A stretch of 32,000 nucleotides of DNA from Desulfotalea psychrophila LSv54 (GCF_000025945.1 NC_006138.1:30001-62000), one strand, 5' to 3'. Shown: positions 5,268 through 32,000, counted from the stretch's first letter. Numbers and translations are program-made. The notes: generated by a model not told the origin, from the sequence alone.

Positions 5268-5480
5268 AATGCTTACTCCATAAATCCAGGTACTGTTCAG
5301 CAACCTTAATATGGCTATGAGTTTGTTCTGCAAACAGCCACAACTGATACCTCATTTCGCTTATCTTATTTTTTGATCTTTATACTAATTTGTTGAACCG
5401 CTTCAGCCTCGTTCGTAAATCCAGATTCTGCCGATCAATACGTTGCGTACACAGCTCACCACAACGTGCTTTTTCTTAGG
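5268..5480 (-). pseudogene. C-terminal remnant of a DDE transposase (IS1-family-like IER-x-N-x-x-LR motif), with in-frame stops
   Basis: Own minus-strand translation gives EKARCGELCTQRIDRQNLDLRTRLKRFNKLV*RSKNKISEMRYQLWLFAEQTHSHIKV. I recall the pattern I-(E/D)-R-x-N-x-x-L-R-x-x-x-x-R-x-x-(R/K)-K...S-K from IS1-type transposase C-termini. Multiple stops upstream and no N-terminal part. Confidence 0.3.
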
Positions 5481-5550
5481 TAACTCAGCATGATACACGT
5501 CAAAATTGTCAGTGCATAAAAACACCTTATACCATCATTTCAATAGATTG

Positions 5551-5559
5551 GCATCACAC
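5551..5559. repeat. Target-site duplication, left copy (GCATCACAC)
   Basis: These 9 bp directly abut the IS terminal inverted repeat and are identical to 6655-6663. Confidence 0.85.
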
Positions 5560-6654: not shown

Positions 6655-6663
6655 GCATCACAC
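6655..6663. repeat. Target-site duplication, right copy (GCATCACAC)
   Basis: Identical to 5551-5559. It lies 11 nt downstream of the acetyltransferase stop codon (6674-6676). Confidence 0.85.
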
Positions 6664-6673
6664 CCATAAATTA

Positions 6674-7184: not shown

Positions 7185-8348
7185 TTAACCCCAAATCTTA
7201 ATCTTCTTAAAAAAGAAATAATAAATAACAGAATACAGTGTAAAATCTAAAAAAGGCGCAAACCAACCATGAAATAAATACAAAAGAGAAAAAAGCGAAA
7301 AGAGTCTAACATACCTCGCGCCAAGATACCTTGCGCCAACAAAAAGCGGCACAAAATGTATGCAAAAAACAAACATAAAAAAGAACACTGAAGAAAAACC
7401 TAGCAGCCCAATCCATCCAGCCATACCTGGGTCTACATTATACACTTCTCCTTTTAAATAAGCTCCAGATAACACTAGATTAAGATCAGGCCTTGAAAAT
7501 GAAGGAAATATTTTTATGAAAATCTCGTATAGAATCCCATTTTCAAAAAAAGTTCTAAAGTTTCGATTTAAAAAAAGATCCCAATACATCTCTCTATTTT
7601 CTATTAAACTTGCTGAATAATTCAAATGTTGAAATCTACTTATAACACTGAAAATTATTTTTCCAAAAAAATCAAAATTATAATTACCAACAACATTTAT
7701 AATTATCTCATTTACAGCAATTCCTTTTCTTAACCCCCACTTAAGGCCATCAATAAAAGGAAGAGACAATATTAAAGCAATAAACAACAGAAAAAATTTT
7801 ATACTATTTTTAGCTTTAAAATAAATTTCATTTCGAACAAGGTACAGCAGAAAAACTATAAAAACACTTCCCATCCAGCCCCTGCTCATCAATGAAAATC
7901 CCAAAAATAATAAATTGTATTTGCAAACTTTATTATTTGAAATAAAAGGTATTGTTAGAATAGCAAGAAGGTCAGGTTTAACGATAACAAAAACATAGTT
8001 GAGTAAGTTAACCTCTGCAAATCTAAATTTAGAACCAGCGATACCCGAACCTGTATAAATACAAAACAGCCAGAAAGCCACTTGAATTATCAATACAACC
8101 AGCCCAGATCTTTTATTCACGAATAGCAAACTATCTCTTTCTAATTTTGTTTTAGCAACAAAATAGAAGAAAACAATATATACAATAGATAATAATTGAA
8201 ACATATAACTTAGTAAATATGAAATAGGTGATATCTTCACCCACTGCTCATCAAACAAAAAACCACCATTTGATATGCCTCTAACAAGAAAGAGTGCATT
8301 CACAACTGCATATACCAATGACAGCAAAAAAACTGAATCTATTTTCAC
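7185..8348 (-). CDS. Polytopic membrane protein, putative O-antigen polymerase (Wzy / EpsG-like)
   Basis: 387 aa, extremely hydrophobic with about 10 or more TM segments, F/Y/I/L-rich, very AT-rich. It lies between a GT2 and an acetyltransferase in a cluster that also has Wzx and Wzz. The call rests on topology and context only. GTG start overlaps the upstream TAG by 1 nt. Confidence 0.5.
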   Translation of the reverse strand: MKIDSVFLLSLVYAVVNALFLVRGISNGGFLFDEQWVKISPISYLLSYMFQLLSIVYIVFFYFVAKTKLERDSLLFVNKRSGLVVLIIQVAFWLFCIYTGSGIAGSKFRFAEVNLLNYVFVIVKPDLLAILTIPFISNNKVCKYNLLFLGFSLMSRGWMGSVFIVFLLYLVRNEIYFKAKNSIKFFLLFIALILSLPFIDGLKWGLRKGIAVNEIIINVVGNYNFDFFGKIIFSVISRFQHLNYSASLIENREMYWDLFLNRNFRTFFENGILYEIFIKIFPSFSRPDLNLVLSGAYLKGEVYNVDPGMAGWIGLLGFSSVFFFMFVFCIHFVPLFVGARYLGARYVRLFSLFSLLYLFHGWFAPFLDFTLYSVIYYFFFKKIKIWG

Positions 8349-10832: not shown

Positions 10833-11337
10833 TTTTAAGGATAGACATCTGAATCATATTCATATATTTTCCCTCCTTAAAAACTGCTTGTCGATGCTTA
10901 CCTTCTTCAGAAAATCCTACCTTTTTGTAAAGCGCACGTGCAGCTTCATTTTCTTCCAAGACAGTCAGATAAACTCGATTTAGATTTAAATCCAGAAAAG
11001 CATGTTTAAGCGCACCTTCAGTGGCAAAAGTACCAACGCCATTACCTCTAAATTCAACATCACCAATCCAAATTGCAAATTCACAACTCCGAGAAATCCA
11101 ATCGATTGATAATAAGTAAACCGCACCAATTATGTCATTACTGCCATGTTGACATACCGCTAGGCGCACACAGTTAGATCTATTTGAAAAATAGTTATCC
11201 AACCAAGCAGAATCAATACTTTCATCAATATATCTAAAAGGTGCCCCCAGTAAACTGATCAAATCATTATTATTCCGCCACTCATTAATCGTTTTTTGGT
11301 CCTGCCTAGATATCTCTCTGAGATAAAAATCTCTCAT
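10810..11337 (-). CDS. GNAT-family N-acetyltransferase (candidate amino-sugar N-acyltransferase)
   Basis: 175 aa. IWIGDVEFRGNGVGTFATEGALKHAFLDLNLNRVYLTVLEENEAARALYKKVGFSEEG contains GNAT motif A. ATGA overlap with the upstream gene. Confidence 0.75.
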   Translation of the reverse strand: MRDFYLREISRQDQKTINEWRNNNDLISLLGAPFRYIDESIDSAWLDNYFSNRSNCVRLAVCQHGSNDIIGAVYLLSIDWISRSCEFAIWIGDVEFRGNGVGTFATEGALKHAFLDLNLNRVYLTVLEENEAARALYKKVGFSEEGKHRQAVFKEGKYMNMIQMSILKNEFSLSN

Positions 11338-12308
11338 ATCCCTATCCTATTCATCACAGACAATATTATTCTAATTTCCTCAAGAGCGTAACGCTGATCA
11401 CATGGTAACGGGACCAACATATTCACCAGTTTCTGTTCAAAACAGCCATCTTCAACTTTATCAATACATTCCGCCCAGTATGTTGAAATAAAAACTCTAC
11501 TTTTAATTAATATATCTTTAAGGCCTTCTTGAGCATACAGGAATGGATAGACCATTGGCCCATCGACAAACGACAAATTTATATTTATTTTATTGCTACC
11601 GCCAAGGATACTATGGATATATAAAAAATTTTCATTCCTTGCAGTTCTAACAGCATCATAATCAACAACTGACAGGAGCCTTTCTGTCAACTTGGACATT
11701 TTTTTAGGCACGAAATCCATCAAAGTTTTTTCTGCCAACTGATAATCTAAATATCCAAATTCTGCTGAATCTGCAAGTCGTTTTAATAAATGAATAGATC
11801 GTTTAATCGAGTCTTCGTCAATTTCTTCTGGTTCTACCATAGATACGTTCGTTACCAAAAAACCACCATCAGGCACACCAAAAAATTTTCTTGGTGAATA
11901 TATTGTTGCCAAACAATCCAAAGGTGCTTGAAAGAATGCCTGTGAATGATCGAAGACAATCTGATCAGAGTTATATTTCTCAAGTATCTTTAATTGCTGC
12001 TTTCCGCAGACACCAAAGTAATTAACATATAATAACAAATCATTCTCTTGAAGTTTCAAGTCTTCTTTAATTGAAAAATCATCGTTCAAAGAATAAAAAG
12101 AAACTTCGACACCCGCCTTATGCACTGGAGCCAACATTGCATCGCAAATATAAAGAGGCATCCAAATCCTCCGTGGATTCACGTATAGTATCAATGCATA
12201 AAATGCAGATCGAGCAGATTGATACCTCAAAGCCTGTGGGTACAGGCTTTGTTTAGCCACTGGAAGCTCAAGTTCAAAATAACCACCTATAGCTTCAGAA
12301 TTCATCAC
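11334..12308 (-). CDS. Uncharacterised protein, possibly a divergent DegT/WecE-like PLP-fold enzyme
   Basis: 324 aa. YSPRKFFGVPDGGFLV resembles the S-x-x-K...GG PLP-lysine segment of DegT-type enzymes. The N-terminal GGYFELELP is not assignable by me. It is translationally coupled within the amino-sugar block. Confidence 0.35.
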   Translation of the reverse strand: MMNSEAIGGYFELELPVAKQSLYPQALRYQSARSAFYALILYVNPRRIWMPLYICDAMLAPVHKAGVEVSFYSLNDDFSIKEDLKLQENDLLLYVNYFGVCGKQQLKILEKYNSDQIVFDHSQAFFQAPLDCLATIYSPRKFFGVPDGGFLVTNVSMVEPEEIDEDSIKRSIHLLKRLADSAEFGYLDYQLAEKTLMDFVPKKMSKLTERLLSVVDYDAVRTARNENFLYIHSILGGSNKININLSFVDGPMVYPFLYAQEGLKDILIKSRVFISTYWAECIDKVEDGCFEQKLVNMLVPLPCDQRYALEEIRIILSVMNRIGI

Positions 12309-20436: not shown

Positions 20437-21226
20437 CCGATTTTTTTCCTTTACCTGCAGAAACACAAGAATATTATTAGATAGAACCTGCACTGTTATA
20501 GGGAAGATCGTTGGGGATTGCAAGAGGAAAAAAGCAAAAAAACAACTACAGTTAACCACAGAGGAAGAAGAGAACACGGAGAAGGACTTTTTTAATTAAA
20601 CTGCTTAAATAAAAACAACACCAACCAAAGGCAGAAAGAACAGCAGCAAGCGTAGCGACGTGGCGAGGACGGCTAACCACAGAGTAGGGGAGGACACTGA
20701 TCCCTTTTAGGTAAAGGACAGGGATTAAAAGTTAACCACTGCTTAAGAGAACACAGAGAAGGACTTTTTTAATTAAACTGCTTAAATAAAAACAACACCA
20801 ACCAAAGGCAGAAAAAGACAACTACAGTTAACCACTGCTTATGAGTACACTGATCTTTTTTAGGTAAAGGACAGGGACTAAAAGTTAACCACTGCTCTGG
20901 AGTACACTGATCCCTTTTAGGTTTAAAAGACCCTTATAGTTAGGTTTTCCCATTGCATCGATTGCAAGGCCTAAACTCACAACCAATGTTCCCAAAAGAA
21001 CTAGCCTTTTAAGCTTTACGCTTTTTAAATAATTTCCTCTGCGATCTCTGTGGTTAACAGTTTTTTTCTGCTTTTCTCGCTTTTAGGTCGTGGTTTTTTA
21101 CCCAAAAATCCTCTGTGTGCTCCGTGATCTCTGTGGTTAACTTCTTTTTTCTGCTTTTTCTCGCTGTTCCTCTCGCCTTTCGCCACTTCGCTGCTATCTT
21201 TTAGGCAGTGGTTGATGCAGTTGTCT
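20437..21226. repeat. Repeat-saturated intergenic region (5 forward units, conserved core, 3 reverse units)
   Basis: GTTAACCAC-type heads lie at 20551, 20672, 20731, 20827 and 20884. The core is at 20931-21010. GTGGTTAAC-type heads lie at 21050, 21133 and 21209 (the last degenerate, GTGGTTGAT). GC-rich companion units lie at 20641-20670 and 21172-21195. Confidence 0.85.
20635..21115. repeat. Palindromic module A, copy 1 (481 bp, carries an extra 153 bp)
   Basis: 20635-20743 is identical by eye to 22197-22305. 20897-21115 is about 95% identical to 22306-22524. The extra 20744-20896 is bounded by the 13-mer GTTAACCACTGCT (20731-20743 and 20884-20896). Confidence 0.8.
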
Positions 21227-21598
21227 TTACAAAACAAGACGTCGAACGCCATCCACCAAGCGAAGCACATTAAAATTGATCAATAATCCAGTATCTACCC
21301 CAGCAAGCTTCATATAGGTCAACACCTGAGCAGTATGAAGTGGCAATAAGGTATCAACCACCTTTAGTTCAACAATGAGTTCATCTGCGACAAGAAGATC
21401 AATACGATATCCCGCATCAATTTCAATATCCTTATACCGGATGGGCAATACAACCTGAGTACGCACAAAAATATTAAGACACTGCAATTCGTACAACAAA
21501 CAGCGTTCATAACTAGATTCGAGTAAACCCGGACCAAGCTGACGATGAACTTCTATAGCACAACCAATCACTGCACCTGTCAACTCTTTAGAATCCAT
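21227..21598 (-). CDS. GxxExxY-family protein (PD-(D/E)XK nuclease-like fold, PDDEXK_3 type)
   Basis: 123 aa from the ATG at 21598, which follows GAGGA. The sequence is MDSKELTGAVIGCAIEVHRQLGPGLLESSYERCLLYEL...IDLLVADELIVELKVVDTLLPLHTAQVLTYMKLAGVDTGLLINFN. The GPGLLESSY motif is the family-defining GxxExxY, and D-x(n)-E-L-K is a PD-(D/E)XK-like core. The track extension to 21679 is translated repeat. Confidence 0.85.
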   Translation of the reverse strand: MDSKELTGAVIGCAIEVHRQLGPGLLESSYERCLLYELQCLNIFVRTQVVLPIRYKDIEIDAGYRIDLLVADELIVELKVVDTLLPLHTAQVLTYMKLAGVDTGLLINFNVLRLVDGVRRLVL

Positions 21599-21702
21599 AA
21601 CATCCTCTATATTTTTGGTCCCAATAATTAAAAACAAAGAAAATTTAACCACAAAAAGAACAGCAAGGACAAAAAGCAAAAGTTAACCACTGCTCTGGAG
21701 AA

Positions 21703-22084
21703 CACAGAGAAGGACTTTTAATTAAAAAGCAGAAAACCTTAAAAATTTTAAACTACTAAGAAAAGACCCAGCCCCTCCATCAGTAGTTCACAAAAAATAA
21801 GGACAAAAAGAAAAAGTTAACCACAGAGGAGGAGGAGAACACTGATCTCTCTTTAATTAAAAAACCTAAAGCTGGAAAAAGAAGAGAATTTACGCACCTC
21901 ACTCCAGTAACACAGGAGTGTTCATCTTTTAGCTTTTTAGCAGTCGCCATTCCACTACGCTCCACTGCTGCTGTTCAGTAGTTCAGCTTTTTAAATAATT
22001 TCCTCTGTGATCTCGGTTGCAGTGGTTAGTCGCTGTTGCTTTAGCTTTTCACCAAAAATCTCTGTGTTCTTGGTGTCAGTGGTT
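21703..22084. repeat. 382-bp direct duplication, copy 1
   Basis: It aligns base for base with 22642-23023 at a constant offset of 939. I found only 3 mismatches, all in 22009-22019. Confidence 0.9.
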
Positions 22085-22196
22085 AACTTCTTTTTTCTGC
22101 TTTTTCTCGCTGTTCCTCTCGCTTTTAGGTCGTGGTTTTTTACAAAAAAAAATCTCTATATTTTTGGTTCCAGTGATTAAAAAAAGACAATAACAA

Positions 22197-22524
22197 AAAG
22201 AACAGCAGCAAGCGTAGCGACGTGGCGAGGACGGCTAACCACAGAGTAGGGGAGGACACTGATCCCTTTTAGGTAAAGGACAGGGATTAAAAGTTAACCA
22301 CTGCTCTGGAGTACACTGATCCCTTTTAGGTAAAAAGACCCTTATAGTTAGGTTTTCCCATTGCATCGATTGCAAGGCCTAAACTCACAACCAATGTTCC
22401 CAAAAGAACTAGCCTTTTGAGCTTTACGCTTTTTAAATAATTTCCTCTGTGCTCTCTGTGGTTAACAGTTTTTTTCAGCTTTTTCTCTCGCTTTTAGGTC
22501 GTGGTTTTTTACCCAAAAATCCTC
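22197..22524. repeat. Palindromic module A, copy 2 (328 bp)
   Basis: See copy 1. The left arm has two forward units (22234, 22293). The right arm has two reverse units (22458, 22541). Read as its reverse complement, the right arm aligns unit for unit with the left arm. Confidence 0.8.
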
Positions 22525-22641
22525 TGTGTTCTCGGTTCCAGTGGTTAGTCGCTGTGGCTTTTTAAATAATTCCCTCTGTGTACTTGGTTGCAGTGATTAA
22601 GTTGAAAAACAAATACTGCTTACCACAGAGGAAGAAGAGAG

Positions 22642-23023
22642 CACAGAGAAGGACTTTTAATTAAAAAGCAGAAAACCTTAAAAATTTTAAACTACTAAGA
22701 AAAGACCCAGCCCCTCCATCAGTAGTTCACAAAAAATAAGGACAAAAAGAAAAAGTTAACCACAGAGGAGGAGGAGAACACTGATCTCTCTTTAATTAAA
22801 AAACCTAAAGCTGGAAAAAGAAGAGAATTTACGCACCTCACTCCAGTAACACAGGAGTGTTCATCTTTTAGCTTTTTAGCAGTCGCCATTCCACTACGCT
22901 CCACTGCTGCTGTTCAGTAGTTCAGCTTTTTAAATAATTTCCTCTGTGTGCTCGGTTCCAGTGGTTAGTCGCTGTTGCTTTAGCTTTTCACCAAAAATCT
23001 CTGTGTTCTTGGTGTCAGTGGTT
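22642..23023. repeat. 382-bp direct duplication, copy 2
   Basis: See 21703-22084. Confidence 0.9.
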
Positions 23024-23096
23024 GGCGTCCTCACCACTCCGCCCTGCTCCGCTGCCGCCACTTCGCTACGCTTGCTGCTGCTTTTTAAATAATTTC

Positions 23097-23123
23097 CTCT
23101 GTGCTCTCTGTGCTCTCTGTGGT
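23097..23123. repeat. 9-nt tandem repeat, 3 units (CTCTGTGCT CTCTGTGCT CTCTGTGGT)
   Basis: Read directly from the sequence. It lies 16 nt from the stop codon of the 355-aa Wzz paralogue. The paralogous site at 25011-25046 has 4 units. Confidence 0.9.
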
Positions 23124-23138
23124 TGATGTGAGATTTTA

Positions 23139-24206
23139 TTACATTGCTTCTTTACGGCGCTGAAGGGCGGTGCGGAGAAGGGCGAGGACAATGGCCAGGA
23201 AGCCGGCAAAGAGGAGTGTGGCGGCAAGAATGAGGGCCTTTTTTGGTTTTATCTTTTCCCCCTCACCCAGAGGATGGGACAGGTACTGGAATCCTTTGAG
23301 ACCGGCAAGATCAGGACTAAAATTCTGCAGCTGTTGCAGACTCGACTGTAGTTGCGTCAAGCCATAGGCCAACCCAGCAGTAGCGGGCATAGAGGCTACT
23401 CCCGCATCCTGCCCCTTGCCAGCAGTTGAGTCCTTCATCGGCCCTACCTGATTCTGCAACTGGATCAAGCTTATCTGGTTTTCCACACTATCCCTATAGC
23501 CCTTGAGAATAATTTGCTGTCCCCCACTTACCTCTGTCACAACACGCTCGTTAACAAATTGCAAAAAGCCTTCAAGCTCACGGGCCAATTTCTCATCACC
23601 ACCACCCCTTAGGCTAATGCCGAGCACGGTGGGATTGGTAATGGATTGATTTTTCTTACCCTGAGGAGCCAAGACCGTAACGGAGAGAGCCCCTTTGAAT
23701 CTGCCTAATTCAGCCTGCAGGCCCTGCTCTGCGGAAAAGGTCTTACCTGTTTTTTTCTGGTAGGCCAACCACATATCACGGGATTTCAGGAGCTGATAGA
23801 CACGGTTAAAACGGTGCTGGGCTAAGAGAGGGTTACTGCCAACAGAGGGCGTGCGCAGAACAAAGGGAAGCTCCATATTGCCATCTTCACCAATCATTTC
23901 AGAGGGAACATTCTCTAGATTTTCCAATGTATCAATCTGCTGATAGAGGGCTGGCAAGAGGGGAGAGGAGACTGCTGAAGGAATCTCTATCTCGGCCGTC
24001 ACCTCATAGGTGGATGGCAGAGCGAGAAGAAGCACAAGGGCGAGGGCACCTATGACAGATACGGCTCCACCAATAAACCAGCGCTGCTGCCAGACATCGA
24101 CAAGCAGGGAGAGGAGGTCGATCTCATCGTCTCGATAATTACTTACCGACAGGGGACACAGGTTAGGTGCTTGGATACTTGAACCTACAGGCCTAGCTTC
24201 ACTCAT
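23139..24206 (-). CDS. wzz: Wzz-type polysaccharide co-polymerase (PCP-1, O-antigen chain-length determinant), paralogue a, 355 aa
   Basis: The start ATG at 24206 lies 5 nt after GGGGAGGA. The N-terminal DDEIDLLSLLVDVWQQRWFIGGAVSVIGALALVLLLAL gives the Wzz N-terminal motif plus TM1. The C-terminal KPKKALILAATLLFAGFLAIVLALLRTALQRR gives the KP-x-x-x-LI motif plus TM2. Confidence 0.8.
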   Translation of the reverse strand: MSEARPVGSSIQAPNLCPLSVSNYRDDEIDLLSLLVDVWQQRWFIGGAVSVIGALALVLLLALPSTYEVTAEIEIPSAVSSPLLPALYQQIDTLENLENVPSEMIGEDGNMELPFVLRTPSVGSNPLLAQHRFNRVYQLLKSRDMWLAYQKKTGKTFSAEQGLQAELGRFKGALSVTVLAPQGKKNQSITNPTVLGISLRGGGDEKLARELEGFLQFVNERVVTEVSGGQQIILKGYRDSVENQISLIQLQNQVGPMKDSTAGKGQDAGVASMPATAGLAYGLTQLQSSLQQLQNFSPDLAGLKGFQYLSHPLGEGEKIKPKKALILAATLLFAGFLAIVLALLRTALQRRKEAM

Positions 24207-25061
24207 TAAAATCCTCCCCAAGAAGTTCCGTACAGAAAAATAGCTTATCTCTTATGTGTATATCATTAACAGGGTGGAATACAAGAGAAAAAAAGACAAA
24301 GAACAGTTAACCACTGCTTAGGAGAACACTGATCTTTTTTAGGATAAAAGACAGGTACTAGATGCTAGCAGTGGAGCACCGCGGAATGGCGGATACTAGA
24401 AAAAGCTGACAAACAGCAGCGAGTAGCAGTGAGTGATAACGAGTGGCGTCAGCAGCGTAGCGGCGAACGAGTGGCGAGCGGAATGGCGAAAAAAGTTAAC
24501 CAGTGCTCAGGAGAACACTGATCTTTTTTAGGTAAAGGACAGGGACTAAAAGTTAACCACTGCTCTGGAGTACACTGATCCCTTTTAGGTAAAAAAAACC
24601 TTATAGTTAGGTTTTCCCATTGCATCGGTTGTAAGGCCTAAACTCACAACCAATGCTCCTAAACAAGTTAGGCTTTTGAGCTTTAGGCTTTTAAAATAAA
24701 TTTCCTCTGTGTCCTCGGTTCCAGTGGTTAACTGCTTTTCTCTTTTTTTTAATCTTTCAAGCAGTGGTAGTGGCAGTTTACAAAAAAAACCTCTGTGTTC
24801 TCATAAGCAGTGGTCAACTTCTTTTTTCTGCTTTTTCTCGCTGTTATTCTCGCTTTTAGGCAGTCGCCACTCCACTCTGCTTCGCTGCTGCTGTGGCAGT
24901 TTACCAAAAAACCTCTGTGAACTCGGTTCCAGTGGTTGGCGTCCTCACCACTCCGCCCTGCTCCGCTGCCGCCACTTCGCTACGCTTGCTGCTGCTTTTT
25001 AAATAATTTCCTCTGTGCTCTCTGTGCTCTCTGTGCTCTCTGTGGTTGATGTGAGATTTTA
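24207..25061. repeat. Repeat-saturated intergenic region including module A copy 3 (about 24495-24732)
   Basis: F heads lie at 24306, 24495 and 24552. A GC-rich companion array lies at 24367-24489. The core is at 24599-24680. R heads lie at 24724, 24810, 24932 and 25042. Confidence 0.85.
25011..25046. repeat. 9-nt tandem repeat, 4 units (CTCTGTGCT x3 + CTCTGTGGT)
   Basis: Read directly from the sequence. It lies 16 nt from the stop codon of the 434-aa Wzz paralogue. Confidence 0.9.
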
Positions 25062-26366
25062 TTACATTGATTCTCTTCGGCGCTGGAGGGCGGTGCGGAG
25101 AAGGGCCAGGGCAACAGCAAGAAAGCAGGAGAGTAAAACTGTGGTGGCAAGGATGAGAGCTTTTTTCGGCTTTATCTTATGCCCACTTCCCGTCGCGGCA
25201 GAATAAACCTGAAGAGCATGAACTCCCTGCAGATCATCGGTGTAAGCATCCAACTGTTGCAGGCGAGAGAGAAGTCCTGGTAGTTCAGCGATATAGGCAT
25301 CATCATCCTTACGAGCCCTGAGCCCGTTAAGCTCACTACTTCCCAGTAAGAGCTCTCTCTTTTCTAGAAGGGGTTGCAGTTGCTGTGCATAAAGTTTTTT
25401 ATCGGAGATCTCTCTTAAAATCTGTATACGCTTCGCCAACACCTCGGTACCCAACAAATATACAGGCATAGCGGTTTGATCAGTTACCATTACCTTGAGA
25501 TTAGAAACATTTCTTTCAGAAATATTATCCATGGAGGTGGGCAACTTTATGCCAAGAGACTCTGCTATAGCATAATTTTCCTGCAAGCGAGTCAAACGAA
25601 CAGCACGGGATCGTAGCACCGAGGCCTTGAGGGCTGAAATTTCCATATCAACCTGTTCAAGATCCTTTTTTTGCTGAGCCAATAGACGGGTAATTCGATT
25701 CCCGCGGTCAACTGAGGCAGCATGGCGCAACAGTCCAATCTTATTATTTATTTCTTTACCCGCTTTCTGAATAACCACCTCCATCTCTTGCTCCACATAG
25801 GCAGCAGCCTTTTTATCCACAAAGAGAACAAATCCCGTCAGTCGCTGTTCTACACTCGTATTATCTCCTCCTCCCCGATAAGAGATGCGCAGCACCGAGG
25901 GATCTGAGACAGCTTTTCCCTTGATAGGTTTTGGGGCCTGAACCTGCACAGAAAGACCAACAAACTCCCCCTGCAATCCCTGAAGTTCTTCATCGGTAAA
26001 CGCCCCCTCCCTATTCCCTTGACGAAAAGTGACCCAACTATCAAAGGATTTTAAGTACTGGGAGACGATGCCAAAACGGTATGATCTAGTCAGCAAGTCC
26101 TGACCTGTAGCCACAGGCACAACCAGGGCAACACTATCGGCTTGACCTATATCCATTCTGGCCTGATAGGTCGATGGAAGGACGAGTAGCACCAGAAAAG
26201 CCACCAAGGTTACGGCCAGAACAATCTTCATAAGAAATTTTCGCTGATCCCAGATATCATGCAACAAACCGAGAAGATCTATTTCATCATTTTGAAAATA
26301 AGGCGATTGTTCTTTATCTCTTCCTCGAAATTCTCTGGCCAATAGCGCTGTCTTATCTTCTTGCAT
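25062..26366 (-). CDS. wzz: Wzz-type polysaccharide co-polymerase, paralogue b, 434 aa
   Basis: The start ATG at 26366 lies 7 nt after AGGAAGG. It has NDEIDLLGLLHDIWDQRKFLMKIVLAVTLVAFLVLLVL and a C-terminal KPKKALILATTVLLSCFLAVALALLRTALQRRR. The central region is collinear with paralogue a but carries about 80 extra heptad-like, Q/L/E/R-rich residues. Confidence 0.8.
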   Translation of the reverse strand: MQEDKTALLAREFRGRDKEQSPYFQNDEIDLLGLLHDIWDQRKFLMKIVLAVTLVAFLVLLVLPSTYQARMDIGQADSVALVVPVATGQDLLTRSYRFGIVSQYLKSFDSWVTFRQGNREGAFTDEELQGLQGEFVGLSVQVQAPKPIKGKAVSDPSVLRISYRGGGDNTSVEQRLTGFVLFVDKKAAAYVEQEMEVVIQKAGKEINNKIGLLRHAASVDRGNRITRLLAQQKKDLEQVDMEISALKASVLRSRAVRLTRLQENYAIAESLGIKLPTSMDNISERNVSNLKVMVTDQTAMPVYLLGTEVLAKRIQILREISDKKLYAQQLQPLLEKRELLLGSSELNGLRARKDDDAYIAELPGLLSRLQQLDAYTDDLQGVHALQVYSAATGSGHKIKPKKALILATTVLLSCFLAVALALLRTALQRRRESM

Positions 26367-26844
26367 AAAATACCTTCCTTGCATGGTAATAACTCATAAG
26401 AACTACAAAATAAAAAGACAACTACAGTTAACCACTGCCTTGAGGACACGGAGAAAGACTTTTTAGGTAAACTGCTTAAAAACAGAAATAAAACCTTGAA
26501 CTTTAAAATCTTTTTATCTTTAAGTTTCTTACTCCGCTTTCCTGCTGCTTTTTAAATAATTTCCTCTGTGTTCTTCAGCCAGTGGTTAATCCATTCGATT
26601 TTCTCGCTATTTCTCTCGCCTTTCGCCACTTCGCTACTACCTTTTAGGTAGTGGCTTTTTACCAAAAAATCTCTGTGTGCTTGGTTGCAGTGGTTAGCCC
26701 TTTCCTGCTGTTATATTTTCTCGCTGTTGTCGTTGCTGTTGTAGTTACTTTTCGCTTTTCGCTTTTTAAATAATTTCCTCTGTGTACCTGGTGTCAGTGG
26801 TTAACCTTTTTGGGGCAGGCACTGCGGAAAGAGAAGAGCAGGAG
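26367..26844. repeat. Repeat-saturated intergenic region
   Basis: An F head lies at 26427. R heads lie at 26582, 26690 and 26797. CTTTTTAAATAATTTCC tails lie at 26548 and 26762. A companion unit lies at 26616-26639. Confidence 0.8.
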
Positions 26845-26874
26845 GCCCCTTCCCCTGTTGAGAGGGGAAGGGGC
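26845..26874 (-). terminator. GC-rich perfect hairpin immediately downstream of the 514-aa Wzz-like gene (candidate terminator or RNA stabiliser; no U-tract)
   Basis: CCCCTTCCCCT (26846-26856) pairs perfectly with AGGGGAAGGGG (26863-26873) across a 6-nt loop. It lies 12 nt from the stop at 26886. The following sequence on the minus strand is CCTCCTGCTCTTC, not a T-run. Confidence 0.4.
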
Positions 26875-26885
26875 TGAGGCAAGGC

Positions 26886-28430
26886 CTATTTAAAGCTTTG
26901 CCCTCTTCTTCTCAGGGCAGAAAAGAGAAGGGCGGCGATAAAAATCATACCTAGTGCCAACATGCCAAAGGCTACCTCCAGTAGAATTATTTTTTTCGCT
27001 TCGTAAACCCCGGCCTGCCTCTTCTGGACTGGCCCGACAATGGTATACATCGTCTGGGATGGCTTGAGGTAGAGTTGACAAACTTCTTTATAGATAGTGC
27101 TTACTCCCTCAACTACTGCGACAAGATTCTCCTGTATTTGTAAAATATCTCCATTAACAATGGCAAATTTTTCATCTGCACTCAGGCGCTTGGCCAGGTC
27201 ATTCTCCGGAGTATTCTTCATATTCTGATAAAAACTGATATCAGACTCTACCCCGGCAAGATCAGTTCCCTCGGCAATAATACGCTTCATCAAGCCCTGA
27301 CGAAACTGTGCTTCGGCACTTTCGTTGGTCAACTTCACCAGGCGATCCAAAAAGGCATCGCCAATTTGCGGGATCATACTCCCCCCACTAGCAGACAGAC
27401 TTGAATTGCCACCAGCTCCAGAGCGAGAACTTCTGGTTGCCCTATTTTGGATATAGGCCTCCATGGCGTCCTCAACAACCCTTATACGTTTTTCAATTTC
27501 AACTCTTTTCCGATTAAGGGCATCCAACCGATAATCAATATAGAGGAGGGCCTGGTTTTTTTCCTTGAAGACCCCAAGTCCCCAAATTTTTGCAAAGAGA
27601 TTTTTAAAGGCAAACAGCTGAATATCTTTTATCTCACTCTGCAAATCGGCAATCGTTCCACGGTCGCCACGCAACAAATCAGCCCCCGGGAGTGCCTCTA
27701 CCCCCTTGGCGAATCCTTCAACCCTCTGCAGCACCAAGCGGTAGCGATCGGCGATGATCATAAACTCACTCTCCGACATATCCCGTAAAATCGCACTAGA
27801 AGAGATTATTGGAATAGAGTATTGAAAAATCCCCTTACTCTCCTTCGAATAATTGGCCCACCCCTCCAATAATTGGGTCAGAACAATCTCTGCAATATCA
27901 TAGGGAATGGCATCGCCAGCCATCCTCAGGAAATAGGGCGCCGAGGCCATTAAAGACCGCTTATCGGCAAGATACTCCTTATGCAAAACACCCCACTGCT
28001 CCGAGGACATTTTTTTAGAGGCTGTTGCTGCTAAAAATCGTTGTTCTAAAATGAGCATGCCCCTACTATCCTTAAGTACAGTAAGAGAGGCCTGAAAATC
28101 TTTAAAGCTGAGATATTCAGCAAGTTGTTTTTCTTCATAAACGGCCCGAAGAATAGGCGTTTCCAGCAGGTCTCTCACCTTAAAGCTCATGCCATTGGGA
28201 TACTCCCCGCTAGCCGCCCCGGCAAAACTAAAATGAACAGGCAGATCAACCACGCGCATCTCTTTTTTACTGAGCAAAAAGGCTGCCGAGGAGGCCATGA
28301 GGAAAAAGAGACAGGCAATAGCAATGGTGATCCATCTGCGACAGGACCATAAGTCCCTAAATATGGTAGTTAAATCTATACAATCATCATCTGCATGCCG
28401 CACAACATCAAGGGCTTTGGACTGGTCCAT
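26886..28430 (-). CDS. PCP/Wzz-like membrane protein, paralogue c, 514 aa (divergent)
   Basis: The start ATG at 28430 lies 8 nt after GGAG (MDQSKALDVV...). DDCIDLTTIFRDLWSCRRWITIAIACLFFLMASSAAFLL gives a Wzz-like N-terminal motif plus TM1. A long helical middle region follows, then the C-terminal TM ILLEVAFGMLALGMIFIAALLFSALRRR. The track extension to 28550 (..FFSVFSSSSVVN..) is translated repeat. Confidence 0.6.
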   Translation of the reverse strand: MDQSKALDVVRHADDDCIDLTTIFRDLWSCRRWITIAIACLFFLMASSAAFLLSKKEMRVVDLPVHFSFAGAASGEYPNGMSFKVRDLLETPILRAVYEEKQLAEYLSFKDFQASLTVLKDSRGMLILEQRFLAATASKKMSSEQWGVLHKEYLADKRSLMASAPYFLRMAGDAIPYDIAEIVLTQLLEGWANYSKESKGIFQYSIPIISSSAILRDMSESEFMIIADRYRLVLQRVEGFAKGVEALPGADLLRGDRGTIADLQSEIKDIQLFAFKNLFAKIWGLGVFKEKNQALLYIDYRLDALNRKRVEIEKRIRVVEDAMEAYIQNRATRSSRSGAGGNSSLSASGGSMIPQIGDAFLDRLVKLTNESAEAQFRQGLMKRIIAEGTDLAGVESDISFYQNMKNTPENDLAKRLSADEKFAIVNGDILQIQENLVAVVEGVSTIYKEVCQLYLKPSQTMYTIVGPVQKRQAGVYEAKKIILLEVAFGMLALGMIFIAALLFSALRRRGQSFK

Positions 28431-28900
28431 AACAAAACTCCATATTAAAAAACAAAAAAAACTACGGTTAACCACAGAGGAAGAGGAGAACACAGAGAAA
28501 AACATTTTATGTAAACTGCTTAAAACAAAAAGACAAGAACTATTAATCACTGGTGGAGAACACTGATTTCATTTTATGTAAACTGCAGAAAAGACAGATA
28601 CTAGATACGACAGATATAAGATACTAGATGCGAGAAAGAGCAGAAAAAGCGAAGGACAGTTAACCACTGCTTAAGAGCACACTGATTTCAGTTTAGGCAA
28701 AGGACGAAAATCTAACAGCAACCAAGGGCACGGCAAAACATCTCTGGCAACAAATCGTTAAAACTAGAGCTATCTAGCAGTTATCTTTTTACCAAAAAAT
28801 CTCTGTGTACTCTGTGAACTCTGTGGTTAACTTTTTTCTGTCTCTCTGTTCTTGATTGCCAGTGGTTAACTTTTTTTTACATTTGGCAAGGAATTGTTTA
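28431..28900. repeat. Repeat-rich divergent intergenic region between the Wzz-like gene c and nfo
   Basis: F heads lie at 28467, 28542 (degenerate) and 28659. GATACTAGAT-type short repeats lie at about 28597-28630. R heads lie at 28823 and 28862. Confidence 0.8.
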
Positions 28901-28937
28901 AAGTGGGTTTTGGGAATAATTACCAACAAGCTGTCCT

Positions 28938-28943
28938 TATAAT
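28938..28943 (+). promoter_or_regulatory. Possible -10 hexamer (TATAAT) for nfo
   Basis: A perfect TATAAT lies 24 nt upstream of the nfo ATG. No convincing -35 is present at 17-bp spacing, so this is weak. Confidence 0.25.
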
Positions 28944-28966
28944 AAAATAGCCACAAGAGGAAGAGG

Positions 28967-29845
28967 ATGAAATATATCGGTGCCCATGTGAGTGCGGCGG
29001 GAGGGGTTGAAAATGCTCCGAAAAATGCGGTTGCAATAGGGGCCAATGCCTTTGCCCTTTTCACCAAGAACCAACGACAATGGAAGGCCAAGCCCTTAAC
29101 GGAGGAGAGTATTGCCGCCTTTAAAGAGAATTTGACAGAGGCCGGGATAGAGGCCAGACATGTCCTCCCCCATGACTCCTATCTGATCAACCTGGGGCAT
29201 CCCGAGGCCGAGGCTCTGGAAAAATCACGGGGAGCATTTATGGACGAGCTGGGGCGATGCGCCCAGCTTGGACTACCCCTGCTCAACTTCCATCCCGGCA
29301 GTCACCTAAAAAAAATTGATCCGGAGGCCTGTCTGGATCGTATTGCCGAGAGCATTAATCTGGCCCATGGGTCGGTGGCAGATGTGATAACCGTTATTGA
29401 AAACACGGCGGGCCAAGGAACTAATCTGGGCTATCGCTTTGAGCATCTGGCCAGGATAATAGCGGCTGTTGAGGATAAGTCGCGGGTGGGAGTCTGCATT
29501 GATACCTGCCACGCCTTCGCCGCCGGCTATGACCTGCGCACTGTAGAGGCATGCGAGAAGAGCTGGGCTGAATTTGACCGGATCGTGGGCTTTAAATATC
29601 TGCGGGGCATGCATCTCAATGATGCCAAGAGTGAATTTTTCAGTCGGGTTGACCGGCACCAGAGTTTGGGGGCGGGAAATATTGGCTGGGAGGCATTTCG
29701 CTATATTATGAAGGATGATCGTTTTGATGATATCCCTCTCATCCTTGAAACTGTGGACACTAGCCTCTGGCAGGAAGAAATTAAAAAACTACAGCAGTGG
29801 AGCGTAGTGGAATGGCGAGAACTAGAAAAAACAAAGACAAGTTAA
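28967..29845 (+). CDS. nfo: Endonuclease IV (AP endonuclease)
   Basis: 292 aa. [13 protein letters not shown]...[13 protein letters not shown]...LLNFHPGSH...[44 protein letters not shown]...[29 protein letters not shown] is collinear with E. coli Nfo. The last ~12 codons and the stop lie inside repeat units. Confidence 0.95.
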
Positions 29846-30060
29846 CCACAGAGGAAGAGGAGTACACAGAGAAAAACTCTTTAATTAAAAAACAAAAAAC
29901 CTTAAAGATTAAACAATTAGGAAAAGAAAAATGTTCCCCTCCATCAGTAGCTCACCCAAAGCCCTCTGTGTTCTTCAGCCAGTGGTTAACGCTGTTCGTC
30001 TTTAAGCAGTTAGCAGTTCACCAAAAAACCTCTGTGTTCTCTGTGGTGATGTAGTTGTCT
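29841..30060. repeat. 150-bp forward/reverse unit pair (29841-29990) plus one more reverse unit
   Basis: The left end reads GTTAACCACAGAGGAAGAGGAGTACACAGAG. The reverse complement of the right end reads GTTAACCACTGGCTGAAGAACACAGAGGGC. A degenerate R head lies at 30043 (GTGGTGATG). Confidence 0.8.
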
Positions 30061-30428
30061 TTACAAAACAAGACGTCGAACGCCATCCACCAAGCGAAGC
30101 ACATTAAAATTGATCAATAATCCAGTATGTACCCCAGCAAGCTTCATATAGGTCAACACCTGAGCAGTATGAAGTGGCAACAATGCTTCCACCACCTTCA
30201 GTTCAATAATGAGCTCATCAACGACAAGAAGATCAATACGATATCCCGCATCAATCTCAATTCCCTTATAGCGAAGAGGTAACATAACCTGAGTACGCAC
30301 AGCATGAGACCTTACAACTCATACAGCAAACAACGTTCATAGCTTGATTCAAGCAAACCAGGACCAAGCTCACGATCAACTTCTATAGCACAACCAATCA
30401 CTACGCCTGTCAACTCTTTGGCATCCAT
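30061..30428 (-). pseudogene. GxxExxY-family gene, inactivated (in-frame TAA at codon 39 plus a 4-nt deletion)
   Basis: The ATG at 30428 opens MDAKELTGVVIGCAIEVDRELGPGLLESSYERCLLYEL, followed by TAA (30314-30312). Relative to the intact copy, 24 nt are replaced by 20 nt, which shifts the frame. The downstream ORF 30061-30300 encodes the C-terminal two thirds. Confidence 0.85.
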
Positions 30429-30672
30429 AGCATCCTCTGTGTTCTTGGTCTCAATAATTAAAAACAAAGATAAGAACAGAAAAAACTACAGTTAACCACA
30501 GAGAAAAGGAGTTCACAGAGAAGAGCATTATAGATAAACTGCTTAAAGACAAAAAACAAAGATCAACTACTATAGTAGTTATCAATGTCCCCAAAAGAAC
30601 TAGGTATTTAATCTTTATTTTTACTACTTTTAAATAATTTCCTCTGTGTCCTCTTCTTCCTCTGTGGTTAAC
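30429..30672. repeat. Repeat-rich intergenic region between the GxxExxY pseudogene and ddl
   Basis: A degenerate R-like unit lies at 30431-30460. An F head lies at 30491. A 16-bp perfect palindrome lies at 30565-30580. The unit CTTTTAAATAATTTCCTCTGTGTCCTCTTCTTCCTCTGTGGTTAAC spans 30627-30672. Confidence 0.8.
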
Positions 30673-31636
30673 CCTTTTTGCCCTTGCTTTTCTCTAATCC
30701 AAGCTCGATGAGGGTATCAAGGAGGGAGGGGAAGTCCATGCCGGTGGCGGCGGCTTCCTGAGGGAGGATGCTGGTTTCGGTCATGCCGGGGATGGTGTTG
30801 GTTTCGAGCAGGTAGAGCTTACCGTCTTCACCGTAGATGAAGTCTGTGCGAGAGTAGCCGCGCAGCCGCAGGGCTTGGTGGGCACGAATGGCATGATCCT
30901 GCACCTGCTCACGAAGGGCATCGGCAATGAGGGCGGGACAGATCTCCTCGGAGGCACCGGGTTGGTATTTTGCCTCATAGTCAAAGAAGGCATATTTATC
31001 ACCGGGAACAATTTCCAGTACCGGTAGGGCCTGTAGATCGTCGTTACCGAGGACTGCACAGGTAAGCTCCCGGCCCTTGATAAATTGCTCCACCATGATG
31101 GCCCCGGCACTACAGTCTCGGGCATGGTTTATCCCGGCCAGCAACTCTTCTTCTGTATGGGCCAGAGAGATACCAATACTGGAACCTGCACAGGCAGGTT
31201 TGACCACCAAAGGCAGACCGAGATCCTCGATAAGTTCCTCTGAATAAAAGAAATCCCCTGCGGCAATGGTATGCCAATCAGCCACGGGAAGTTCAGCGTT
31301 ATAATAGAACTCCTTGGCCAGGTCCTTATCCATGGCCAGGGCACTGCCCAATACCCCGGAACCTTGGTAGGGAATGCCGAGCAGGTCGAGAAAGCCCTGG
31401 ATTGTACCGTCTTCACCATGCAGACCATGGAGGAGAATAAAGGCAAAGTCGATGGAGGCGGCATCGGCGGCAAGTCGGGGCAGATCGGTGGCCGAATCAT
31501 AGCGCGAGACCAGATACTTCTCTTTATCGAGGATCCTCTCGACACCGTCGGCCCCGGTCAAAGAGACCTCTCTCTCACCGGAGGTTCCACCAGCTATCAG
31601 GGCTATACGTAATCTTTCTGCTCTTTGTTCTTGCAT
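30668..31636 (-). CDS. ddl: D-alanine--D-alanine ligase
   Basis: 322 aa. IALIAGGTSGEREVS, HGLHGEDGTIQGFLDLLGIPYQGSGVLGSALAMDK and the C-terminal LLETNTIPGMTETS are Ddl/ATP-grasp signatures. Confidence 0.93.
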   Translation of the reverse strand: MQEQRAERLRIALIAGGTSGEREVSLTGADGVERILDKEKYLVSRYDSATDLPRLAADAASIDFAFILLHGLHGEDGTIQGFLDLLGIPYQGSGVLGSALAMDKDLAKEFYYNAELPVADWHTIAAGDFFYSEELIEDLGLPLVVKPACAGSSIGISLAHTEEELLAGINHARDCSAGAIMVEQFIKGRELTCAVLGNDDLQALPVLEIVPGDKYAFFDYEAKYQPGASEEICPALIADALREQVQDHAIRAHQALRLRGYSRTDFIYGEDGKLYLLETNTIPGMTETSILPQEAAATGMDFPSLLDTLIELGLEKSKGKKG

Positions 31637-31758
31637 TTATTTCTTTCTCCGTGGTATTCGATCTCTATATTTATGCATCCTCACTCCTTTTAAAATTTCC
31701 CGGGAAGGATGTTCATTTGCCTCAAACCTTTAAAAATATTTCTTCCAGCCACTCTATT

Positions 31759-32000
31759 ATGACTTCATTGAATTCGAATATCATTAAAAAAATATCTGCC
31801 ATTGTAGGAAAGGAGTACTGCACCACCCGCATGGCCGACCTCCACTGTTACTCCTATGACGGCAAGGGCATTATCTATCTCCCTGAAGCCGTTGCCTTTC
31901 CTCGCACCACAGAGGAGGTCAGCGAGATCATGAAGCTGGCCAGCCTACACCGCTTTGCCGTGGTTCCGCGGGGTGCTGGCACGGGGATGACCGGCGGCAG
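31759..32000 (+). CDS. FAD-binding (PCMH-type) oxidoreductase, GlcD/D-lactate dehydrogenase-like, N-terminal part (runs off the right edge)
   Basis: Own translation gives MTSLNSNIIKKISAIVGKEYCTTRMADLHCYSYDGKGIIYLPEAVAFPRTTEEVSEIMKLASLHRFAVVPRGAGTGMTGG. PRGAGTG.TGG after a P.T.EEV..I.K.A segment is the GlcD-type FAD-binding N-terminus. Open-ended, so not in the ORF track. Confidence 0.75.
   Translation, partial: MTSLNSNIIKKISAIVGKEYCTTRMADLHCYSYDGKGIIYLPEAVAFPRTTEEVSEIMKLASLHRFAVVPRGAGTGMTGG

Follow-up and report, generated by a model that had tools for sequence, protein, structure and literature searches.

Short repeats crowding the spacers of a polysaccharide locus in Desulfotalea psychrophila belong to a cross-phylum family of elements tied to the putative nuclease GxxExxY

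The window analyzed here is a stretch of 32,000 nucleotides from Desulfotalea psychrophila LSv54. Positions 1-20437 hold an O-antigen/exopolysaccharide (EPS) cluster on the - strand, whose tightly packed genes encode sugar transferases, glycosyltransferases, an asparagine synthase, a Wzx-like flippase, a DegT aminotransferase, epimerases/dehydratases and a UDP-glucose dehydrogenase (window annotation, Pfam/NCBIfam). In the stretch under study, 20438-30672, the spacers between genes total 4671 nt of 10.2 kb, with lengths of 790, 1540, 855, 519, 536, 215 and 239 nt. These values, derived from the boundaries of open reading frames (ORFs), agree with the non-coding excess reported in a preliminary description made from the sequence alone, as does the dense packing of the first 20 kb. 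The spacers are crowded with a short repeat, here called the arm, and the stretch also carries an intact gene and a pseudogene of the GxxExxY protein family. The central conclusion is that this swarm is the visible tip of a cross-phylum family of elements tied to an uncharacterized nuclease. The genes that border the spacers are listed first.

21227-21598, -: intact GxxExxY gene, 123 aa, PD-(D/E)XK, PDDEXK_3 (TIGR04256 E=1.2e-41; identical to P0121 of D. psychrophila)
23139-24206, -: first wzz-like chain-length gene
25062-26384, -: second wzz-like chain-length gene
26886-28430, -: 514-aa gene without a family match
28967-29845, +: nfo
30061-30428, -: GxxExxY pseudogene, a frameshifted second copy (three-frame translation; 86-91% nucleotide identity to 21213-21643; repeats D9, D16)
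30668-31636, -: ddl

Arms were located with an nhmmer profile trained on 26 exact-head copies, with which the whole window was scanned at a threshold of E<0.05. The profile identifies 43 arms (20 on the + strand and 23 on the - strand), close to the roughly 45 copies (21 and 25) of the preliminary description. Every one of them lies inside 20546-30676; the next match is at 27995-28018 (E=1.2), within the 26886-28430 gene, and no arm is found beyond the stretch at E<1, in keeping with the earlier statement that 1-20436 and 30673-32000 lack full-length copies. Additionally, GTTAACCAC with at most one mismatch occurs at 34 sites vs. 5.1 +/- 2.5 in shuffled sequence (0 of 100 shuffles equal), and 32 of the 34 lie within 20551-30672. 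Profile and shuffle counts agree that the modular unit is a real repeat family. In the window, an arm is GTTAACC followed by two to four tandem words of 8-9 nt with the core CACNGAG, and the aligned consensus, AAAA-GTTAACCAC-(AGAG or TGnn)-(0-2 extra 9-mers)-GAGnACAC-(AGAG or TGAT)-T/A-rich tail, is far longer than the GTTAAC hexamer. The arms are given below with their nhmmer E-values, unless otherwise stated.

20546-20594, +: arm with AGAG-type words (E=7e-10)
20674-20711, +: arm with head GCTAACC (E=2e-6)
20727-20771, +: arm (E=6e-12)
20822-20864, +: arm with degenerate words CACTGCT / CACTGAT (E=3e-10)
20880-20921, +: left arm of composite element copy 1 (E=2e-11; alignment A3)
21025-21063, -: right arm of composite element copy 1 (E=4e-7; alignment)
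21104-21145, -: arm with three words (E=4e-9)
21599-21640, -: decayed 5' arm directly upstream of the GxxExxY ATG, reverse complement GTTTTTAATTATTGGGACCAAAAATATAGAGGATGTT-ATG (read from the sequence; homologous to 30429-30473, D16)
21678-21720, +: arm (E=2e-12)
21811-21855, +: arm (E=6e-9)
21991-22028, -: arm (E=4e-8)
22053-22091, -: arm (E=4e-9)
22236-22273, +: arm (E=2e-6)
22289-22330, +: left arm of composite element copy 2 (E=2e-11; alignment)
22433-22471, -: right arm of composite element copy 2 (E=8e-8; fold of 22285-22475 z=-2.0)
22515-22547, -: arm (E=1e-7)
22562-22600, -: arm with head TTAATCAC (E=4e-6)
22622-22659, +: arm (E=1e-4)
22750-22794, +: arm, identical copy of 21811-21855 (E=6e-9; repeat D6)
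22930-22967, -: arm (E=3e-8)
22991-23023, -: arm (E=7e-6)
23085-23124, -: arm abutting the first wzz-like stop, 2.8 tandem 9-nt words CTCTGTGCT (E=3e-5; Tandem Repeats Finder, TRF)
24301-24343, +: arm (E=7e-12)
24490-24532, +: arm (E=6e-11)
24548-24589, +: left arm of composite element copy 3 (E=2e-11; alignment)
24692-24737, -: right arm of composite element copy 3 (E=6e-11; alignment)
24780-24823, -: arm with head GTTGACC (E=2e-8)
24902-24937, -: arm (E=4e-6)
24999-25034, -: arm abutting the second wzz-like stop, 3.8 tandem 9-nt words, one above its paralogous copy (E=3e-4; TRF)
26422-26467, +: arm (E=5e-11)
26552-26589, -: arm (E=2e-8)
26661-26696, -: arm (E=5e-7)
26766-26810, -: arm (E=1e-9)
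28462-28509, +: arm with canonical words (E=6e-10)
28543-28574, +: arm with decayed head TTAATCAC (E=1e-3)
28656-28693, +: arm (E=9e-9)
28792-28836, -: arm with three canonical words (E=3e-9; TRF)
28841-28875, -: arm (E=1e-5)
29839-29884, +: arm (E=2e-9)
29957-29993, -: arm (E=1e-7)
30022-30047, -: arm directly adjoining the GxxExxY pseudogene at its 3' end (E=3e-4)
30427-30450, -: 5' arm of the GxxExxY pseudogene, whose final word plus spacer, CACAGAGGA, lies 5 nt upstream of the ATG (E=0.04; sequence)
30486-30533, +: left arm of the best-preserved gene-less element (E=1e-8)
30630-30676, -: right arm of the best-preserved gene-less element (E=1e-8; 94% complementary to 20551-20581, I19)
30486-30676, unstranded: complete gene-less hairpin element (arm, loop, arm), 191 bp (fold)

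The earlier impression that the spacers consist almost entirely of copies of the unit does not hold for the arms, which cover 1709 of the 4671 nt (37%). Repeated DNA as a whole, with loops and a second, GC-rich module included, accounts for more: 3852 of the 4671 nt (82%) recur elsewhere in the window, and 1-20437 contains no base of this sort. Nor are the copies on opposite strands inverses of one another, as had been proposed: CACTGAT is found in 11 of the 20 + arms and in none of the - arms, and the tails differ too. This asymmetry is common to many copies and indicates that whole, already diverged elements were copied, a pattern that duplication and recombination would fit better than repeated fresh insertion.

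Single arms have no internal palindrome, as first described, and begin with GTTAACC (alignment). They occupy seven separate spacers, including those between unrelated genes (nfo, ddl), and within each spacer the + arms precede the - arms, tail to tail, with three such blocks in the 1540-nt spacer. This is the arrangement able to fold into hairpins. Copies that had been taken for independent units pair into hairpin-type elements. The 191-bp element at 30486-30676 folds as RNA into one long hairpin at -64.5 kcal/mol (z=-6.4), and 0 of 200 shuffles were as good. In the composite element, which has three copies in the window, only the terminal 9 bp still pair (z=-2.0 for 22285-22475).

The second, GC-richer module lies just outside many heads (e.g., AGCAGCAAGCGTAGCGACGTGGCGAGGACG, GCAGTCGCCATTCCACTACGCTCCACTGCTG) and is found in both orientations with 80-90% match. 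Its sites include 20635-20665 and 22197-22227, the inverse copies 23056-23086 and 24970-25000, and further copies at 21925-21975, 22864-22914, 24380-24490 and 29787-29837. It resembles a further word-type array that has become joined to the arms.

Arms of this kind are present in many other bacteria. A scan of 185,579 species genomes for the pattern GTTAACCACWG-N(4-16)-GAGNACACWGA, which fits 16 of the window arms, yielded at least 120 loci, with 123 matches listed. Among the matches listed, the hosts belong to at least 14 phyla, namely the Acidobacteriota, Planctomycetota, Verrucomicrobiota, Chloroflexota, Bacteroidota, Pseudomonadota, Desulfobacterota, Nitrospirota, Bacillota, Actinomycetota, Chlamydiota, Lentisphaerota, Fibrobacterota and Cloacimonadota. 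The match count alone proves nothing because about 200 chance matches are expected in 596 Gb (own arithmetic). Instead, the content of the matches shows that the family is real: in 110 of the 123 listed, the unspecified positions spell a further in-register word, GTTAACCACAGAG-n-CACAGAG-n-ACACAGAG. The arm is often identical over about 30 nt between phyla, and several contigs per metagenome-assembled genome (MAG) carry arms at unrelated loci, for instance in the Pyrinomonadaceae. Across lineages, the head follows T-T/C-A-A/C-C-C and the words read CACAGAG, CACGAAG, CACGGAG, CGCAGAG, CGCGGAG, CACCAAG, CGCAAAG or CACGGAT. The features that define the word-array family, a TTAACC/TCACC head, at least two tandem heptamers at 8-9 nt, inverted pairs and a flanking GxxExxY gene, are all found with the window arms.

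A tail-to-tail partner lies no more than 400 nt downstream at 50 of the 120 listed loci, forming gene-less hairpins with loops of 5-200 nt, and 26 of the 120 have a head-to-head partner, mostly in the Pyrinomonadaceae. Tandem amplification also occurs: in Aequorivita marina a 58-nt unit of arm plus tail is repeated 12.7 times, and in a Bacteroidales MAG a 112-nt hairpin is repeated 4.9 times. The head-to-head arms share the layout CTCTGTG..GTGGTGA, 4-40 nt, GTTAACCACAGAG.., in which a GTTG spacer precedes a fourth word, and are near-identical at many unrelated loci of Pyrinomonadaceae and other Acidobacteriota (L001, L004, L007, L009, L013, L025 and about 20 more). They would form a distinct sub-family that has apparently expanded recently. 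In a Chthoniobacterales MAG (L094), two matches to a different motif, Acido-Lenti-1, at 355-401 (-) and 504-550 (+), with 46 and 43 bits (gathering 37), flank a strong hairpin in inverted orientation, with a CACAGAG arm a few hundred nt away; the Acido-Lenti-1 motif may itself be a repeat element.

The arms also occur in predicted viral sequences. A stricter 24-base pattern, for which the chance expectation is far below one (own arithmetic), matches at least 120 predicted viral contigs in IMG/VR. These arms are mostly solo, and among the matches listed 48 of 148 lie 35-44 nt upstream of an ORF start. Three of the contigs (L209, L211, L212) have the flank GAAACCCGAACyTTrAAyTAACCACAGAG in common and may represent a single phage lineage in which a conserved leader contains the arm.

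The family was also compared with described repeats. At the gathering threshold, Rfam has no match in the window and no family for the arms in the canonical hairpins of 18 loci; at E<=5 the window gives one chance match (E=2.8), in a coding region. A search of the open-access literature found no published description of the arm or cassette family, and RepRanger merely counted generic palindromes in D. psychrophila (PMC12306157).

The preliminary description had treated the repeat without a link to any gene. Arms, however, bracket GxxExxY genes, two of them within the stretch, and form the terminal inverted repeats of a cassette of about 0.5 kb with a GxxExxY ORF of about 370 nt. In six genomes from five phyla, this ORF lies between GTTAACCACAGAG..CACAGAG and CTCTGTG..CTCTGTGGTTAAC. 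The layout consists of a forward arm, 0-60 nt, an ATG with 121-126 codons and a stop, 10-20 nt, and a reverse arm ending in GTGGTTAAC. An independent sample was obtained by a protein-pattern scan of metagenomes for GxxExxY, which gave 74 loci whose flanks were available on both sides. At a score of 14 or more, inverted arm pairs are present at 45 of the 74, vs. 16 of 222 cross-locus pairings, and relaxing the mismatch penalty raises the number to 62 of the 74 (mean arm 32 nt, 84% Watson-Crick). Moreover, when about 200 loci were examined for ORFs of 70-260 aa with strong flanking inverted repeats, 25 of the 28 found encoded GxxExxY and the other three were antisense or neighbor artefacts, so GxxExxY is the only recurrent cargo.

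Most copies are gene-less, and the GxxExxY gene is present at only 8 of the 120 listed genome loci. Where the ORF lies inside, partner distances cluster at 392-433 nt. The idea that the loops of gene-less copies are deletion remnants of the ORF is unsupported, with a match of only 10 nt (E=0.06). Between the 5' arm and the GxxExxY start lie 0-60 nt, and the word plus spacer of this arm reads AGAGGA, GAAGGA or GGAGGA. In the window, a purine-rich, Shine-Dalgarno-like stretch just upstream of the start is repeat-derived. The window gene has arms of the same orientation on both sides. Its closest relative (71% identity) is on a TARA contig (L203), in a polysaccharide locus, where five complete hairpin elements surround it. 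That gene, at 4001-4372, lies between epimerase genes and beside a pyruvyl transferase gene, and in Colwellia polaris and relatives (L206-L208, 4001-4375) the GxxExxY gene lies between rmlA and rmlC. A primer for a Bacteroides fragilis capsule locus contains CTCTGTGTTCTCTGTGGTG (PMC3090145). The relatives examined sit in polysaccharide clusters, which suggests a possible preference for surface-polysaccharide loci.

The window GxxExxY protein scores 141.8 bits on TIGR04256 (cut-off 35) and belongs to Pfam PF13366 (PDDEXK_3). Residues D67, E77, K79, Q91 and Y95 are invariant in 50 homologues, and D...ExK together with QxxxY is the signature of the RecB/Cas4/lambda-exonuclease clade. An AlphaFold (AF2) model built from these homologues has a predicted local distance difference test (pLDDT) score of 96. 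Its best neighbors by Foldseek in the PDB are Cas4 SSO0001, the lambda/LHK exonucleases, the AddB/AdnA nuclease domains and the Hjc resolvase, with weak scores (E of 5e-3 and above, template modeling score about 0.5); a sequence search of the PDB gave no match. The predicted structure shows a minimal RecB/Cas4-like PD-(D/E)XK nuclease fold. Neither PADLOC nor PHROGs has a match to GxxExxY, and membership of a defense system or phage family was rejected. Plasmid carriage was likewise rejected, as only 8 of 72,556 plasmid records contain GxxExxY. With 7946 clusters at E<=1e-20 among 8000 candidates, GxxExxY is one of the large bacterial families lacking an assigned function. A survey of PD-(D/E)XK proteins lists the function of the family as 'Unknown' and notes multiple transfers between divisions (PMC3424549).

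The conserved unit is the word. One heptamer is used throughout both arms of a locus, and the heptamer differs between loci. When 24 arm pairs are anchored at their heads, changes on both sides are seen at 22 of 28 positions, and compensatory cells number 102 vs. 44.8 +/- 5.9 when shuffled (0 of 500 as high). Sliding the partner out of register lowers pairing from 83% to 37-50%, percentages that are inflated because these pairs were chosen for complementarity, although the pattern stays informative. The word positions co-vary, and in 9-11 of the 24 loci the 2-nt spacers that separate the words do not pair. Since the stability of a hairpin by itself would neither call for identical words within an arm nor preferentially tolerate unpaired spacers, both point to recognition of the repeated word.

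Taken together, these observations give somewhat better than even support to the interpretation that the ~45-nt units are the decayed terminal arms of widespread small palindromic elements, REPIN/RAYT-like or MITE-like (miniature inverted-repeat transposable element), that are partnered with the minimal nuclease GxxExxY. In such elements, two inverted arms would bracket either a short loop, by far the commonest form, or the ~370-nt GxxExxY ORF. The nuclease, probably multimeric, would recognize the repeated words at both ends and cut at or near the heads, gene-less hairpins would be non-autonomous copies served in trans, and phages carrying arms would help to spread them. In the window, a few elements and one GxxExxY cassette may have settled in the spacers of the O-antigen/EPS locus, after which multiplication would have been mostly local, through tandem and segmental duplication, unequal crossing-over between arms, slippage of words and gene conversion, followed by decay.

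Several observations weigh against the partnership of arms and GxxExxY. It is from linkage alone that we infer a mobilizing role for GxxExxY, and the survey cited above lists no activity for the family. Some GxxExxY genes are without arms, including those of Colwellia (L206-L208). In D. psychrophila and on the TARA contig the gene lies between elements and not inside one, and no GxxExxY gene was found near the arms of the at least 120 viral contigs within the 1.04 Mb examined. No target-site duplication was found at 53 cassettes: the flanks match over 0 nt at 38 of them, over 1 nt at 10, over 2 nt at three and over 3 nt at two, a distribution equal to that of the shuffled control. Nor was an empty site found that would define the element ends. 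In the window, most arms pair poorly, as the fold of one composite element illustrates, and the present-day activity of these elements is doubtful. Finally, the amplification called local here is local relative to the 32-kb window alone.

A bolder form of the same proposal is that GxxExxY proteins are the enzymes of a previously unrecognized, pan-bacterial class of selfish palindromic elements, the nuclease reading heptamers at inverted ends and spreading both the ~0.5-kb cassette and gene-less hairpins without target-site duplication. This extension is tentative, and we would sooner doubt it than adopt it.

Less probable still, and on balance unlikely, is that the arms act in RNA and that their spread is secondary. 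They would pair in the transcript, as a panhandle around GxxExxY or as hairpins in the 3' untranslated regions of the spacers, and would mask Shine-Dalgarno-like words, stabilize or terminate mRNA or form an RNase III site, by analogy with hok-type fold-back mRNAs, REP (repetitive extragenic palindromic) hairpins and 23S rRNA intervening sequences. Co-variation of the arms between loci is expected of such a device, yet pairing alone needs neither the single heptamer nor the frequently non-complementary spacers. As to the strand, the transcript-strand fold of 30480-30680 is strong (z=-6.4), but mismatches in 62 arm pairs are of G.U type in 76 cases and of A.C type in 64 on the sense strand (p=0.35), and this lack of a G.U excess gives no sign of selection on sense RNA rather than DNA. 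The proximity of the 5' arm to the GxxExxY start, with its AGAGGA, GAAGGA and GGAGGA sequences, would suit a role in translation; among gene-less arms, however, ORF starts show no preference for the tail side (33 vs. 34 in the genomes), and arms as general 5' leaders or ribosome-binding sites were rejected. Many gene-less elements begin 5-30 nt past a stop codon and terminator-like sites in the stretch number 21 vs. 10.8 +/- 3.2, as a role at mRNA 3' ends would predict, but Rfam has no match and in the window most arms have lost their pairing. For sigma-70 promoter-like sites, the stretch shows no enrichment (11 vs. 13.0 +/- 3.8).

It is more improbable again that purely local recombination produced the swarm. 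On this view, unequal crossing-over together with segmental duplication of the wzz region would have expanded one or two ancestral repeats on the spot, with no mobile element involved and GxxExxY merely adjacent. Local copying has clearly left its mark:

21698-22936, unstranded: tandem duplication with a period of 939 bp, 21698-21997 = 22637-22936, 100% identical (repeat D6), several arms doubled
22986-23261 / 24900-25184: shared patch, 84-91% nucleotide identity, comprising arms and the last ~45 codons of both wzz-like genes (repeats D18, D20; BLASTP)

Additionally, the GxxExxY unit at 21213-21643 is duplicated at 30047-30473 with 86-91% identity, and the second copy is now the pseudogene (D9, D16). 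The two Wzz-like proteins are only 28% identical overall (BLASTP), and their common 3' patch reads as a putative gene conversion. The paralogous arms behind them have 2.8 and 3.8 words (TRF), which indicates 9-nt slippage. Arms are 57 nt apart in several places (D1, D3), a tandem spacing that local multiplication would produce, and none is found elsewhere in the window. These patterns show that the copy number rose partly by local duplication and gene conversion, and in this respect the earlier suggestion of a locally amplified family stands. The family itself is not local, as it spans at least 14 phyla and at least 120 IMG/VR contigs. Local recombination accounts for copy number and not for origin: it leaves unexplained the dispersal of the arm at unrelated loci in many phyla, the bracketing of GxxExxY genes in general, and the presence of arms in seven separate spacers, including those between the unrelated genes nfo and ddl.

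Least probable, by a judgment close to dismissal, are the classical systems, a MITE swarm derived from a DDE insertion sequence, an array of REP or bacterial interspersed mosaic elements (BIMEs) served by a REP-associated tyrosine transposase (RAYT), or an integron-like array of attC cassettes: small elements with terminal inverted repeats, most of them gene-less, are reminiscent of MITEs, the alternating orientation in spacers is reminiscent of BIMEs, the gene with a palindromic site resembles an integron cassette, and a DDE_Tnp_1 fragment is present at 6010-6345, but this fragment is 14 kb away with no adjoining arm, the lack of target-site duplication does not indicate classical cut-and-paste DDE transposition, no RAYT/Y1 transposase or tyrosine recombinase is found among the ~25 larger window ORFs (Pfam/NCBIfam), the unit is not a palindrome of 20-40 nt with a GTAG or CGTC tag, the head GTTAACC misfits GTTRRRY / RYYYAAC, and the cargo is of a single family, unlike that of integrons.

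Repeat DNA has also altered a neighboring gene. The 3' end of nfo (29787-29845, +), with the last ~19 codons and a stop that is the TAA within a GTTAAC head, consists of repeat DNA and has an 80% inverted match to 21925-21975 and 22864-22914 (inverted repeats I4, I5). The nfo product has 292 aa, whereas homologues have 280-286 aa and align to only 94-95% of it. Nearly all of the closest homologues of nfo (71-79% identity) come from Gammaproteobacteria, among them Aliagarivorans and Sedimenticola, and those of the window GxxExxY are from cold-marine Pseudoalteromonas and Colwellia, which hints that parts of the region may have been acquired horizontally. Synteny with the closest nfo homologues was considered, but the loci are non-syntenic and hence uninformative. 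Three ORFs in or beside the polysaccharide locus, 26886-28430, 7185-8348 and 11334-12308 (all -), have no Pfam/NCBIfam match; the 514-aa product of the first has only Wzz-like terminal membrane segments and a weak BLASTP match to the second wzz-like gene (E=0.002). The tight EPS operon has a 1.4-kb gap at 5267-6673 with ORFs at 6010-6345 and 5717-5968 (-), the former a DDE_Tnp_1 (IS4/IS5-type) transposase fragment (E=2e-7) of an apparently dead insertion sequence, near which the nhmmer profile detects no arm.

If elements partnered with GxxExxY are confirmed, they would supply a testable function for GxxExxY/PDDEXK_3, which is annotated in thousands of genomes, and a second enzyme type among the systems that maintain populations of hairpin repeats in bacteria, analogous to REPIN/RAYT but with another catalytic fold. 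Arms give rise to spurious ORFs and change the ends of genes, as with nfo. They also favor duplication and gene conversion in surface-polysaccharide loci, as in the wzz-like genes, and may in this way contribute to the plasticity of O-antigen and capsule loci. Near-identical 30-nt arms across phyla and viral contigs could also mark horizontal transfer.

Among known systems, clustered regularly interspaced short palindromic repeats (CRISPR) differ most plainly, as arms are irregularly spaced (52 to 3864 nt) and present in both orientations; this distinction had been drawn at the outset, together with the poor fit to attC. Integron cassettes, like those described here, consist of a promoter-less small ORF with an imperfect palindromic site and occur in arrays, and the window GxxExxY gene with its same-orientation arms resembles a cassette flanked by attC. 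However, the usual arm cassette has two inverted arms around its ORF and the integron cassette one site after it, no intI or tyrosine recombinase gene is among the submitted window ORFs, and GTTAACC breaks the RRR of R' (GTTRRRY). The intervening sequences of 23S rRNA with an S23p/four-helix-bundle ORF, which we take to be a further useful comparison, also hold an ORF of ~120 aa within long-stem inverted repeats in many phyla and in multiple copies. They differ in protein fold and family and in being inserted in rRNA helices. We know of no word-array arms in 23S rRNA intervening sequences, and no S23p-type ORF lies between arms in the ~200 loci examined.

Bacterial MITEs, of which we take Correia/CREE, RUP, ERIC and Chunjie to be representative, share more with the arm elements: a size of 100-250 bp, terminal inverted repeats, a mostly gene-less state, a location in spacers within operons, and a habit of nesting and clustering. 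Both the terminal inverted repeats and the small size without coding capacity are seen in the 191-bp element at 30486-30676. In contrast to MITEs, arm elements have no target-site duplication and no related DDE transposase; no parent element with a known transposase was found, only GxxExxY lying between arms, and the gene-carrying form encodes a minimal nuclease. The initial suggestion of a MITE swarm or BIME-like array therefore pointed to the right neighborhood, although neither a MITE parent nor, among the ~25 larger window ORFs, a RAYT was found. Overall, the arm/GxxExxY family is rated as a selfish palindromic repeat with a partner gene that matches no described repeat in the open-access literature.

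The nearest analogue is REPIN/RAYT, in which REP doublets are mobilized by a Y1 HUH transposase (PMC3116915, PMC3337134). Both families consist of inverted short repeats in hairpin doublets with many intergenic gene-less copies, and both have one small gene with repeats on both sides and no target-site duplication. For the arms, the dispersed inverted doublets are seen in the order of + and then - arms in each spacer, at 50 of the 120 listed loci and in the z=-6.4 fold. Unlike the partner gene of REPIN/RAYT, GxxExxY is multi-copy and has undergone multiple transfers (PMC3424549). Among the ~25 larger window ORFs, no RAYT (Y1 HUH) gene is flanked by arms (Pfam/NCBIfam), and the alignment shows no palindromic unit with a GTAG or CGTC 5' tag. 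A REP unit is one palindrome of 20-40 nt with a GTAG tag, whereas an arm is two to four tandem words of 8-9 nt, and REP sequences are lineage-specific whereas the arm sequence is common to many phyla. Finally, the gene of one system is an HUH Y1 transposase and that of the other a 123-aa PD-(D/E)XK protein of RecB/Cas4-like type.

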